Assembly: GCA_963789955.1 (NCBI GenBank)
Contig: CAWBMV010000022.1
Coordinates: forward strand, 32,001-96,000
Direction of reading: 5' to 3'
DNA length: 64,000 nucleotides
Origin: an uncultured Candidatus Rokubacteria bacterium
GTDB lineage: Bacteria > Methylomirabilota > Methylomirabilia > Rokubacteriales > CSP1-6
Positions 18,001 to 21,000 of this stretch are shown here, in pieces; the stretch's first letter is position 1, and the number at the start of each line of letters is the position of its first letter. The position numbers were made by a program.

Positions 18001-21000
18001 TGAGCAGACGAGTCACGAACCGCCAGTCCGTCACGAACGCCGTCACGATGATCACCACGAGGCCGACGCCGGTCGCGACGAACAGGCGCGGGCGAGCGCT
18101 CACGACCCGGAACAGGAGCGGCATGCGGGACTGCCGAGGACTCACGGCGCGAACATATCATCAACCCCCGCGTCGGGCCGCACGATGCTGGCCTAGACCG
18201 TGAAGGTTTGGTAGGGTCCGAGACGTGGAGTCGAGGCCCGAGCCGCGATTCGATTGGTTCATTCCCATCGACGGAGACGGCGCGCACATCGGAACGTGGC
18301 GCGCCGAGCGGCCGCCGACGTTCGACTACCTGCGCCAGGTCGTGGAGACGGCCGAGGCCGAAGGATTCTACTCGCTCCTGATCCCGACGCGGTTCGCGAA
18401 CGGGCTCTTCGGCGAGACGGCGCCGCTGGCGGAGACGTGGACGACGGTGACGGCGCTGGCGGCGGTCACCCGCCGCATCCGGTTCCTGGTGGCGATCCGG
18501 CCGGGATTCATCTCGACCGGCTTGTTCGCCCAGATGGCGGCGGCGCTCGATCAGATCAGCGGCGGGCGGCTCGACATCAACGTGGTGCCCGGCGGGATCC
18601 AGGGTGACTTCGAGCGGCTCGGCGTCACGATCGACCACGACAAGCGTTACGAGCAGGGCGAAGAGTTCATCGCCGCCTTGCGCGCGCTCTGGGCGAAGCC
18701 GGAGCCCGTGGTGTTCGAGGGGAGCACGGTGCGGCTGAAGGGCGCGGTCGTGTCGCCCGGACCGGTGGCGGGCGCACCGAGGTTCTACGTCGGCGGCGCC
18801 TCGCCGCGGGCGCTCGAATTCGCGGCGGCCGGCGCCGAAGTGTACCTGGCGTGGATCCAGCCGCTCGACGAGATCGCCAAGCTGCTGGACCGTGTGCGGT
18901 CGGCGTACGGCGCCAGGGGCCGCCGCCCGGTGTTCGGGCTGCGCACGCACCTGGTCGTGCGCGCGACCGAGGCTCAGGCCTGGGAAGCGGCCGAGGAGCT
19001 GATGTCGCGGGTCGACGAGCGGGTGGTGGCGCAGCGGCAGGCCGCGTTCGCCGGGACCCCGATGGTGGGCCAGCAGGCGCAGCTCCGCGCCGAGCTCCGC
19101 GAGCGGTCACCGCGCCTCTGGAACGGGATCTCGAAGGTGCGCGTCAATCTCGGGACGGCGATCGTCGGCGACCCCAAGCAGGTGACGGAGGAGCTCGCCG
19201 CGTACTGGCGCCTGGGCATCGACGAGTTCATCCTGTCGGGGTTCCCCCACGTCGAGGAATGCCGGCGAGTGGCGTCGGAGGTGCTGCCGGGCCTCCGCGC
19301 GGCGATCGAGCGGGAGCGTTGAGATGATCACCGACATCGAATCCTATCTGCGCTTCTTCGACAGCGTCCGGCGGCGAACCGAGCGCGACATCGCCGCGCT
19401 TCCGGCGGCCGCCGCAACGTGGCAGCCGCCCGCGGCGAGCGGCGAGGCGGGCTGGGGCATCGGCCAGCTCGTGGGCCACATCGGGGCCACTCGTCTTTAC
19501 TTCGCCAGCGCCTACCGCGGCGAAGGCTGGATCCTGGCGGAGCCCGACATCGATCGCGCGAGCCAGCGCACGTGGGTGCCGTGGCTCGAGGCGTCGGCCG
19601 ACCGATTCGTCACCCTGCTTCGCGATACGCCGGCGGAATGGCTCTCGCGGCGGATCGAGATGATCGACACGCCCGGCACGCTTCCGGGATGGCGCCTTCT
19701 GATGATGATGCTCGAGCACGAGGTGCACCATCGTTCGCAGATCGACACCTACGCCGGCCTCCTGGGCTGGCCGGTGCCTCAGATCTTCGAGCGAACGTTC
19801 GAGAGCATCGCCGCGCTTCAACCCGAGCAGCGCGCTCGTCACCCGCGCTGACCTTCGCGTCCAGATTCGCGCCGGCGTGGACGCGGCGGGCGACCTTCGC
19901 TAGACTGGACGGCGCGATGAGAACGTTCCGCCCCGCCATGACTGCCGTGGCGCCGGCGACGTCACTGAAGGAGAGCTCGCGATGACGACCACGGCGTCCG
20001 GGGCGAAGGCAGCGTTCGCGGCCGACTACGACGCGCCGATTCCCTATATGCAGCGGACGCGCGACTACTATCAGGTCCTCGGCTTCAACGCCGTATCGCT
20101 GGGCCCACTTCGTCGAGGTTCCGTTCACGCCGCTGCGGATGCCCCTCGACCGGGCGCGGGTCGCGTTGATCACGACGGCGGCACCGTTTCAGCCGGGCGT
20201 GGGCGATCAGGGCCCGGGGGCGGCGTACAACGCGGCGGCCAAGTTCTATCAGGTCTACTCGATTGCGGCCGACACCGTGCCCGATCTCCGGATCTCGCAC
20301 GTCGGCTACGACCGACTGCACACGACGGCGGCGGACATCAATACGTACCTGCCGCTGGCGCAGATGAAGGCAGCGGCCGCCGCGGGACGGTTCGGCTCGC
20401 TGGCGCCGCGGCTTCACGGAGCGCCGACGAACCGGAGCCACCGGGTGACGATCGAGACCGACACCCCGGAGCTCTTGCGGCGCTGTCGCGAGGACGGAGT
20501 CGACGCCGCCGTCCTCGTCCCGAGCTGACCCGTGTGTCACCAGACCGTGAGTCTGGCGGCGCGGTACCTGGAGGAGAACGGGATCTCCACGGTGATCATG
20601 GGGTGCGCCAAGGACATCGTCGAGTACTGCGGCGTGCCGCGGTTCCTCTTCAGCGATTTCCCGCTGGGCAATTCGGCCGGCCGGCCGTTCGACCGCGAGT
20701 CCCAGGCGCAGACGCTCGAGCTCGCGCTGCGAGTCCTCGAGAGCGCGCCGGGCGCACGCACGACGGTGCAGTCGCCGCTCCGCTGGAGCGAGGACGCCTC
20801 CTGGAAGTGCGACTATCTCGACCTGACGAAGCTCTCCCCTGACAAGATCGCCGAGCGCAAGAAGGAGTTCGACGAGGTGAAATCGATCGCGCGGGCGAAG
20901 CGCGAGGCTTCATGAGCAAGCCGTTCTCCGGCGTCCGCATCCTCGACTTCACCCGCTATCTCGCCGGGCCATACGGCACCTACCAGCTGGCGCTCCTGGG

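Follow-up and report, generated by a model that had tools for sequence, protein, structure and literature searches.

The window analysed here, a stretch of 64,000 nucleotides from contig CAWBMV010000022.1 of an uncultured Candidatus Rokubacteria bacterium (GCA_963789955.1), encodes a selenoprotein related to PrdB of D-proline reductase, and its gene overlaps that of a conserved family III CoA-transferase. A functional link between the two proteins is likely, and the selenoenzyme very probably works independently of PrdA/GrdE. Tentatively, and at somewhat below an even chance in our estimate, we propose that a CoA-activated acid is the substrate and that the selenolate breaks a bond between its alpha-carbon and a heteroatom, no pyruvoyl subunit taking part. 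The initial annotation had described the gene as stand-alone and missed the coupled CoA-transferase, which is the most informative feature of the locus: The pairing offers a testable clue to the real role of the so-called proline reductase family, a question that is 20 years old.

Reading frame and selenocysteine codon

The selenoprotein gene extends from 19982 to 20915 on the + strand and encodes 310 amino acids, with Sec as residue 182, once a single extra base at position 20090 (+ strand) is discounted. This base shifts the frame of the initial ~36 codons and hid the start, which had been placed at 20139 for a protein of 258 amino acids. The N-terminus read from the ATG at 19982 is also carried by intact relatives, one of which is 94% identical to the window protein and has the same length of 310 amino acids. 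A Shine-Dalgarno-like AAGGAG, read from the sequence, is located 8 nt upstream of the ATG (19968..19973, + strand). The extra base is missing from the contigs of all four sequencing runs compared, the alignment to relatives agrees, and it is probably an assembly error. A search for promoter or terminator consensus sequences found none. Contigs from two RNA runs lie over parts of the two-gene unit, which says nothing on transcription level or co-transcription.

The in-frame TGA of the U-P-V-C motif (20526..20528, + strand, context LVPS-U-PVC-HQT) is, on sequence evidence, almost certainly read as Sec. It was present exactly as first described and is kept in 59/59 orthologous matches (68-100% identity) among 121 genomes of the order, this genome included; the conservation originally claimed for it thus holds, far above chance. 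Related loci carry TGC or TGT at the Sec position in 41 of 80 cases. The second cysteine of U-x-x-C (codon 20535..20537, + strand), a putative resolving cysteine, is invariant in 67 aligned homologues and occurs in 99% of environmental rows and in 4/4 true PrdB proteins. A SECIS-like hairpin with a 6-bp stem and a 5-nt loop that has G in second place (20540..20556, + strand) begins 12 nt past the UGA; spacing and loop G are the subject of the rule for bacterial SECIS hairpins. Within the window clade, a perfect stem is found at 55 of 58 distinct TGA sites versus 0 of 41 Cys sites, and a rare AGT serine codon is present in 50/51. SelA, SelB, SelD and tRNA-Sec were all found in this genome. The selenoprotein and transferase genes are each frameshifted in this assembly, from which one might conclude that translation really stops at the TGA, or that the locus is decayed and its two frameshifts mark a pseudogene. 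We regard this as highly improbable, since the universally kept TGA aligns to Cys codons in homologues, the SECIS constraint is confined to TGA forms and the extra bases are missing from independent contigs.

A paralogue on contig C1 has its in-frame TGA at C1:591195 in the context ITPT-U-PNC-THT, again as initially described. Comparison with intact relatives places its start at C1:590726 and indicates a length of 397 amino acids rather than the 308 given before; here, too, one extra base, near C1:590925, appears to hide the start. The TGA, which had been left unchecked in relatives, is kept in 24/24 full-length matches. All 7 pairs of the SECIS hairpin are formed in 22 of these 24, and 2 rows have one pair changed on both sides. 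The protein has an additional helical C-terminal part, for which an Atlas search returned weak unnamed matches only, and no fixed neighbour of the gene was found across 24 loci. The C1 paralogue probably runs the same U-x-x-C chemistry on a different substrate.

CoA-transferase pairing and missing Grd/Prd partners

The start of the CoA-transferase gene (20912..22106, + strand, 397 amino acids, PF02515) overlaps the selenoprotein stop (ATGA). Its frame is split by one extra base at 21260 (+ strand); relatives are intact, and the base is missing from the contigs of three of the four runs, the fourth being without cover there, so that an assembly error is again probable. Asp171, which we take to be in the place of the catalytic Asp, is invariant among 26 aligned sequences, and the protein belongs to family III. 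An orthologous transferase (57-100% identity) is located downstream in 67 of 80 loci, which span Rokubacteria-type genomes, Bradyrhizobium and three other Alphaproteobacteria, while the other CoA-transferase paralogues listed for this genome are at most 41% identical to the partner. Among the 121 genomes of the order, 60 have the window clade, 59 the transferase and 58 both. Note that genomes of one order are kin and that 58/60 therefore overstates independence. Of 351 Alphaproteobacteria, 9 gave a close match to the transferase, and the window clade is present in every one of these genomes. Downstream of other PrdB-like genes there are four more lineages of CoA-transferases, with 26-43% identity between the groups. 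In the sampled proteobacterial loci a CoA-transferase lies within 1.5 kb downstream in 13 of 44 cases, compared with ~40 such genes among ~6000 in this genome. Bradyrhizobium-type loci have a Cys version of the two-gene unit in 34/34 cases. This version occurs in cultured Bradyrhizobium, where knockouts and purified enzymes would need no selenium machinery.

The pairing is not obligate, and about half of the proteobacterial members are without the transferase. Among ~20 Alphaproteobacteria with the clade it was seen in 9 (best five candidates per genome scored), 13 genomes without an adjacent transferase have a match elsewhere in only 2 cases, one at just 42%, and in a Burkholderiales-centred sample it adjoins only 1 of 8 clade loci. 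Two plasmid-borne members have no CoA gene adjoining. No conserved transporter or regulator that would hint at a substrate was present near the gene in the annotated neighbourhoods. A complex prediction for selenoprotein and transferase, run without controls, scored 0.00 and is evidence neither way. Three apparent fusions to a CoA-transferase (P0296, P0304, P0305) look like frameshifted operon read-throughs and were not counted. Among the longer homologues, 24 of 34 carry a fused acyl-CoA ligase, which favours a link to CoA chemistry; the ligases are of two types that share only 25-29% identity. A kinase-like domain is fused to 4 others. Since unfused relatives of one ligase type have a PrdB-like neighbour in 0/80 loci, the ligase fusions may be incidental; a metagenome scan for ligase-fusion loci yielded unfused ligases only.

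The reported lack of GrdA, GrdC and Prd partner families was borne out by both profile searches and tblastn in this genome, which is 87% complete. PF09338, GrdA and DUF5940 gave no match and PrdC one only far below cut-off; one GrdA/GrdC profile search had no positive control. The tblastn searches with Grd and Prd proteins, including those of a same-genus Grd cluster, found only the two selenoprotein genes and two proline-racemase-family genes. The lack of Grd genes is no trait of the lineage: PF09338 was matched in 37 of the order's 121 genomes and in 6/8 of the same genus, GrdA in 5/8 of the latter. Together with the two racemase-family genes, the incomplete assembly and the fact that PrdB is the closest curated model, these occurrences would suit an ordinary selenoprotein B of proline, glycine or betaine reductase whose PrdA/GrdE-type subunit is encoded elsewhere and was lost from the assembly. 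Such a reading is nevertheless quite unlikely. PF09338 is unmatched in 35 and GrdA in 39 of the 60 genomes with the window clade, and PF09338 is found in 0/5 Bradyrhizobium genomes by the same family search that detects it in the order. The Grd clusters of relatives include their own full-length GrdB, and the racemase-family genes sit on other contigs than the selenoprotein genes. Neither PrdA nor PrdC is encoded next to the selenoprotein gene in annotated loci; prdA adjoins true prdB in 3 of 4 fetched loci. The earlier proposal that these are selenoproteins of the GrdB/PrdB superfamily used outside Stickland complexes agrees with the clade genomes and Bradyrhizobium genomes in which PF09338 went unmatched.

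Proposed chemistry and its alternatives

The Sec codon, the SECIS element, the selenium machinery, the absence of partners and the gene pairing can be read from sequence. Our proposal for the chemistry goes further. A PrdB-fold selenoenzyme of 310 amino acids would act without PrdA/GrdE, GrdA and GrdC, its gene forming a unit of two with that of a dedicated family III CoA-transferase. The transferase would convert a carboxylic acid with a heteroatom substituent, candidates being onium nitrogen or sulfur, a thioether, an N-alkyl amine or a halide, to its CoA thioester. The selenolate would then attack the alpha-carbon and displace this substituent, a step that has been proposed for PrdB and GrdB as well. 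A thioester stabilises an enolate, and when the cysteine three residues on attacks selenium, the carbon could leave as thioester-stabilised enolate to give a plain acyl-CoA. Finally, thioredoxin or glutaredoxin would re-reduce the Se-S bond. The thioester would thus replace the pyruvoyl Schiff base as activator and make GrdA and GrdC unnecessary. In the available parts of PMC3091704, the mechanism of PrdB is described as attack of Sec on the alpha-carbon, followed by cleavage of the selenoether by a PrdB cysteine. A thioester is not chemically required, because true PrdB frees its product without one. For fluoroacetate, loss of fluoride through displacement by a GrdB homologue has been proposed, and the partner of this homologue is without the cysteines that form the pyruvoyl group (PMC10838667, in part).

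The same link to the pathway could also serve another chemistry, in which U-x-x-C reduces a disulfide, persulfide, sulfoxide or similar bond of an organosulfur acid or CoA ester and no carbon-selenium intermediate is formed. This is a possibility to be taken seriously, even if we consider it rather unlikely. In the structure model the motif lies at a helix start after a strand, as redox CxxC motifs usually do, and Sec and Cys forms are intermingled freely in the tree. Glutaredoxin is encoded downstream in a sister clade, and a rhodanese gene lies upstream in two loci. The glutaredoxin suits our first proposal as well, as do two loci of the sister clade in which the gene is followed by one for a similar small protein and, after it, one for a CoA-transferase. 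In the parts of PMC2398784 available, the majority of U-x-x-C selenoproteins in bacteria are classed as thiol oxidoreductases. However, ~20 core positions are common to the window family and true PrdB, a C-N cleaving enzyme, and a plain disulfide reductase would scarcely need a dedicated CoA-transferase. The latter would share the operon only by chance, and would have been passed on in some lineages, if the selenoprotein were a general, peroxidase-like antioxidant or repair enzyme. The many members without transferase, the unconserved neighbours past the pair, the abundance of the family in oxic surface seawater (PMC1088965, in part) and a peroxidase activity of GrdB reported in the title of a cited reference all point in this direction. 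We still judge a general protective function improbable, because five unrelated CoA-transferase lineages lie beside PrdB-like genes and the orthologous transferase occurs without the clade in only 1/59 genomes of the order and 0/9 Alphaproteobacteria.

To return to cleavage of a CoA-activated acid, its generalisation is more doubtful still: A class of Sec- or Cys-containing "protein B" enzymes, widespread in soil and sea, might use CoA-thioester activation in place of a pyruvoyl subunit and the GrdA/GrdC relay, and convert acids with an onium, thioether or halide substituent directly to acyl-CoA, two genes and a redoxin being sufficient. If true, this class would represent a new route for small organic nitrogen or sulfur compounds and would account for a selenoprotein family that ranks among the most abundant in the sea.

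Relation to PrdB, GrdB and environmental selenoproteins

The window and C1 genes are, by sequence comparison, full-length PrdB homologues that fall into two separate clades, 35% identical across 209 residues, in a family of at least 8000 clusters at 90% identity. As noted before, the NCBIfam scores are far under cut-off. In the 258-aa frame the window protein reaches 85.1 bits against TIGR04483 (PrdB, cut-off 300) and 25.3 bits against TIGR01918 (GrdB/GrdF/GrdH, cut-off 65); a homologue with full domain reaches 83.3 bits against the former. The statement that every curated cut-off is missed does not extend to Pfam GRDB (PF07355), where 25.7 bits exceed the gathering threshold of 22 and the search of the genome gave 29.9 and 27.7 bits. 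A resemblance restricted to the C-terminal half was confirmed against GrdB, with model positions 222-420 only being matched, and refuted against PrdB, where positions 46-233 of 238 are covered and the shared core positions are spread through the whole domain. In the tree, PrdB groups with the environmental clades against GrdB with a support of 0.94, in a comparison in which GrdB/GrdF/GrdH involve a long branch. Structural searches were less specific. With a Cys homologue as query, a sequence search of the PDB found nothing below E 0.33, and Foldseek gave no PDB match at E 0.001. The best VIA-align match was a LacI-type domain (Z 9.3, rmsd 4.3, 142 aligned) with SDRs just behind, and both programs gave generic alpha/beta matches only for the window and C1 models. 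When the window clade was searched against the Atlas, clusters named GRDB were matched and no further lead emerged.

The selenoprotein family is already known and not new. Instead of one short new subfamily, as first suggested, there are two clades, both with proteins longer than PrdB, and both already appear among the selenoproteins that the supplement of the 2008 GOS selenoproteome files under "Proline reductase" (PMC2398784). Motif searches of this supplement found two forms of the post-Sec motif 34 and 9 times, two upstream motifs 9 and 7 times and a C1-type C-terminal motif 11 times. The Sargasso Sea and GOS "PrdB" proteins (PMC1088965, PMC2398784) are the same kind of sequences, with the diagnostic segments of the window clade and the C1 C-terminal extension, reads being matched to clades by eye and motif, not alignment. 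In the Sargasso set, where "proline reductase" is the third most abundant known selenoprotein family, 42 "PrdB" stand against 1 GrdA and 1 GrdB, and in GOS 235 "PrdB" against 5 GrdB; as far as the available parts of these two papers go, the clostridial function is given, and missing PrdA, separate clades and a CoA-transferase partner are not discussed there. In the literature within reach, which excluded most subscription papers, no study was found that connects the family with a CoA-transferase. The label "proline reductase" cannot hold where the pyruvoyl subunit is missing, and metagenome annotations in which these genes stand for Stickland fermentation are therefore probably wrong.

Among known systems, the UGSC family (NF041046, PF24696; ~147 amino acids) likewise has U-x-x-C. 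It shows distant profile similarity to the window protein around the motif (probability 88.5%, 97 columns), and the window protein has no UGSC match at E 0.01 in NCBIfam or Pfam. This genome holds 9 matches to the UGSC family, each with one TGA. The CoA-transferase matches solved members of family III (CaiB, Frc, YfdE, SUGCT) over the full length, with a best E of 1.7e-69, but makes up an orthologous group of its own; when the two pieces left by the frameshift were scanned one by one, neither reached an NCBIfam cut-off. GrdB/GrdF/GrdH (~435 amino acids) and FarB of Cloacibacillus (PMC10838667, in part) share superfamily PF07355 with the window protein, but have ~220 additional N-terminal residues, a PF09338 partner and GrdA/GrdC, all of which the window clade lacks. 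For FarB and betaine reductase, the available text of the same paper states that the partner subunit forms no pyruvoyl group. In contrast to D-proline reductase of Clostridium sticklandii, no prdA, prdC, prdD or prdE was found here, either next to the gene or elsewhere in the genome, and Cys forms are common. Homology nevertheless spans nearly all of PrdB, with 29% identity across 216 residues in the window clade and 36% across 196 in C1. PrdB has ~241 amino acids versus 310 and 397, and U-x-x-C is in the same place, as U-G-T-C there and U-P-x-C here.

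Selenocysteine codons and extent of the two genes

The frame at window 20139-20915 contains a single TGA at 20526-20528 (context LVPS-U-PVC-HQT) and that of its paralogue on contig C1 a TGA at C1:591195 (ITPT-U-PNC-THT). These two genes were the only matches when the genome under study was searched with both proteins. Judged from sequence, both codons encode selenocysteine, and conservation, cysteine homologues, SECIS elements and machinery provide four lines of evidence for this. The window protein is matched in 87 of 121 genomes of the order Rokubacteriales, a set which includes the genome under study as well as two genomes marked unpublished (G056 and G084), and each of the 59 matches at 68-100% identity contains exactly one TGA. 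For the C1 gene, the TGA is kept in 24 of 24 full-length matches. Among 80 named loci of relatives, the site codon is TGA in 39 and TGC or TGT in 41, and all 120 database homologues among the matches listed carry cysteine. Of the 58 TGA forms, 55 have a perfect SECIS-type 6-bp stem starting 12 nt 3' of the codon, as against none of the 41 cysteine forms (99 distinct sites), part of this contrast being due to differing amino acids, as 34 of the 41 cysteine forms have Thr-Ala at the stem region. Where serine is kept, the rare AGT codon, which accounts for 26 of 844 serine codons in the window genes, is used in 50 of 51 TGA forms versus one of seven cysteine forms. The 7-bp stem of the C1 clade is complete in 22 of 24 cases, and the other two have one pair altered on both sides. 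Genes for tRNA-Sec, SelA and SelB cluster at C1:731972-736707, and SelD is encoded on C6.

The lengths of 258 and 308 residues in the initial annotation proved too short, with the N-termini cut off; intact relatives extend further. The window gene (19982..20915, plus strand) starts with ATG at 19982, is preceded by AAGGAG, and its N-terminus agrees with intact relatives. An extra base at 20090 is absent from the contigs of all four public runs aligned to this stretch and another at 21260, in the neighboring transferase gene, from those of three of four; both are most likely assembly errors. With the base at 20090 discounted, the protein comprises 310 residues with selenocysteine at position 182. 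For the C1 gene, the start lies at C1:590726, and its product of 397 residues matches 21 aligned intact relatives, the frame shift having been placed by comparison with relatives. Since single-base shifts recur in this assembly (window 20090, 21260 and 24770-25792; C1 near 590925), gene lengths as called in this genome need care. The window ORF 24770-25792, presumably similar to MoxR-type ATPases, seems to be out of frame too.

The same genome holds nine matches to the UGSC family, all with a single in-frame TGA (C34:763908, C19:53783, C6:147441, C22:153012, C3:53291, C4:1430, C12:136422, C13:30738 and C8:38248). The pairs on C3/C4 and C13/C8 have identical scores and may represent duplicated contigs. 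In two of the nine (L005, L006) a long N-terminal part seems to be fused on, and another (L007) lies downstream of a 344-residue gene with a similar start.

Placement in the PrdB family and Stickland partners

The window protein scores 85 bits against the PrdB model (cut-off 300), covering model positions 46-233 of 238, and 25 bits against the broad selenoprotein B model (cut-off 65), while it passes Pfam GRDB (25.7, cut-off 22). Because PrdB itself is only 242 residues long (PMC3091704), the earlier view of half-proteins had to be abandoned, and the window and C1 proteins are full-length PrdB homologues that carry extensions. In a FastTree phylogeny (101 chosen sequences, 210 columns, rooted with one GrdB), all environmental clades group with true PrdB, away from GrdB (support 0.94); support for environmental clades to the exclusion of PrdB is just 0.55. 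The window clade (0.92), in which selenocysteine and cysteine forms are intermixed, is distinct from the C1 clade (1.0), with 35% identity over 209 residues. The family comprises at least 8000 clusters at 90% identity (every one of the 8000 candidates scored) and, at 50%, 2324 representatives; it is matched in 31 of 351 Alphaproteobacteria and, in a Burkholderiales-centred sample of 301 genomes, in 11. The window gene has its nearest named relatives in Rokubacteria/Methylomirabilota. A confident model of a cysteine homologue (pLDDT 85) predicts an alpha/beta domain in which the motif opens a helix; sequence search found no solved relative and fold comparison no clear one. A further clade of PrdB-like genes with a U-G-L-C motif (L213, L214, L218) resides in a conserved cluster whose other members we take to resemble a radical SAM protein, a metallophosphoesterase, a mercuric-reductase-like protein and glycosyltransferases. 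This clade may be related to organoarsenic or similar chemistry.

Profile searches of the genome gave no match to PF09338 (PrdA/GrdE), GrdA or DUF5940, and the best PrdC match reached 38 bits versus a cut-off of 490. When Grd proteins from relatives and the Prd proteins encoded by an annotated operon served as tblastn queries, they returned the two selenoprotein genes, two proline-racemase-family genes and nothing else. The latter (C13:42733-43734 and C35:22329-23327) share 38-39% identity with an annotated PrdF-type protein and neither is linked to the selenoprotein genes. Absence from this genome alone is weak evidence, because it is 87% complete and Grd clusters occur in the order: PF09338 is matched in 37 and GrdA in 31 of 121 genomes, and in six and five, respectively, of eight genomes of the same genus. 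Profile matches across genomes argue more strongly: 35 of the 60 genomes with the window clade are without a PF09338 match and 39 without a GrdA match, and none of five Bradyrhizobium genomes matches PF09338. Among the true Grd clusters of relatives (L223-L228), some have two or more GrdE/GrdB pairs; several of the GrdB proteins are without the second cysteine after selenocysteine, and a small CPWC-motif protein is encoded between GrdB and a GrdC-like gene.

The window gene is a real selenoprotein gene whose sequence family has been known since 2005-2008. The Sargasso Sea study counted 42 'proline reductase PrdB' selenoproteins versus one GrdA and one GrdB, and describes this set by the clostridial reaction (PMC1088965). 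The GOS selenoproteome lists 235 such proteins and 110 cysteine homologues; motif searches of its supplementary sequences under 'Proline reductase' revealed reads with window-clade diagnostic segments and reads with the C1-clade C-terminal extension (PMC2398784), so that both clades have been on public record as selenoproteins since 2008. In its passages on the protein, a 2026 review describes clostridial PrdB only, and it refers to a genome of Methylomirabilota that encodes 63 selenoproteins (PMC13188914); likewise, the relevant part of a 2022 preprint about novel selenoprotein families treats PrdB solely in the Stickland sense (10.1101/2022.07.06.499078). The current family name, proline reductase, is probably wrong.

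The adjacent CoA-transferase gene

The window gene had been proposed to stand alone, but its stop codon overlaps, in ATGA at 20912-20915, the start of a gene for a family III (CaiB/Frc-type) CoA-transferase (20912..22106, plus strand). An orthologue lies downstream in 67 of the 80 named loci, almost always as the next gene, with 57-100% identity; other paralogues listed in the genome reach at most 41%. The paired loci are 30 of Rokubacteria type, all 34 of Bradyrhizobium type and three from other Alphaproteobacteria, and one of the 13 loci scored as missing the transferase lies on a contig too short to hold it. Within the order, the clade occurs in 60 genomes, the transferase in 59 and both in 58, a count that overstates independence, since these genomes are kin; of the two scored with the clade and without the transferase, one is G084. 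Nine of 351 Alphaproteobacteria have a close transferase match, and all nine contain the window clade.

The association has limits. Among the Alphaproteobacteria, about 20 have the window clade but only 9 of these the transferase (at most five candidates scored per genome), and 13 genomes without an adjacent copy contain a match elsewhere in just two cases, at 58% and 42%. It is adjacent in one of eight window-clade loci of the Burkholderiales-centred sample, and neither of two plasmid-borne members has a CoA-transferase gene beside it. Neighbors other than the selenoprotein-transferase pair are variable and none names a substrate. The C1 clade has no fixed neighbor in 24 loci (about 1.5 kb flank). 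Upstream on the same strand, a luciferase-like monooxygenase gene and a DinB-family gene (window 18225-19851) are common to only a few of the closest loci. In L053, a locus of one relative, a short AhpC/TSA-family ORF with an early end follows the CoA-transferase (L053:8074-8307) and is possibly another TGA-interrupted selenoprotein gene.

Four more CoA-transferase lineages lie downstream of other PrdB-like genes (L180/L183, L195/L197, L210/L211 and L327/L328; 26-43% identity between groups). Of the 44 loci in two proteobacterial samples, 13 carry a same-strand CoA-transferase gene at most 1.5 kb downstream, the background rate being about 40 genes of this kind among some 6000 in the genome under study. 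In a sister clade (L189, L191-L194, L327, L328), a small glutaredoxin-like gene directly follows the PrdB-like gene (Pfam matches in L189 and L191-L193), and in L327 and L328 a CoA-transferase gene comes next, a compact three-gene unit well suited for biochemistry.

Among 34 longer homologues, 24 carry a fused acyl-CoA ligase, which is of one type in 14 clusters and of another in 10 (25-29% identity between types). These fusions may be incidental, since none of 80 loci of unfused relatives of one ligase type has a PrdB-like gene nearby. Three apparent CoA-transferase fusions look like frameshifted read-throughs and were discarded. Four clusters (P0273, P0274, P0275, P0279) join the PrdB-like domain to a fructosamine-kinase/APH-like domain, which suggests activation by phosphorylation or a simple operon fusion.

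A possible reaction and its alternatives

In the scheme proposed for D-proline reductase, the substrate binds to the pyruvoyl group of PrdA, selenocysteine attacks the alpha-carbon, and a PrdB cysteine cleaves the selenoether, yielding an Se-S bond for PrdC to reduce (PMC3091704). The partner subunits for fluoroacetate and for betaine do not form a pyruvoyl group (PMC10838667). In the window clade, a CoA thioester may take over activation; it would open the alpha-carbon further to attack and would stabilize the enolate leaving as cysteine resolves the selenoether. Thioesters raise the susceptibility of the alpha-carbon to attack and stabilize enolates. This would leave a plain acyl-CoA as product, with no need for GrdA and GrdC, and a redoxin would regenerate the enzyme.

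We put forward this CoA-thioester-activated cleavage tentatively, as somewhat short of probable; the gene pairing is what the sequences show, and every later step is a prediction. The same pathway could involve reduction of an S-S or S-O bond, which we consider somewhat less likely. A general antioxidant role, against which the recurrent transferase speaks, appears doubtful. That the protein is a conventional reductase with a distant partner is improbable: although the order does contain Grd clusters, many genomes have the window clade and no match to the partner profiles. A dead gene, for which the interrupted frames of this assembly might be taken, is highly improbable alongside the TGA and stem kept among relatives.

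Our literature search found no paper that moves the family off proline reduction or ties it to CoA activation. PrdB and the window clade have U-x-x-C and some twenty core residues in common, whereas the window clade is without the partner subunit and has a CoA-transferase instead.
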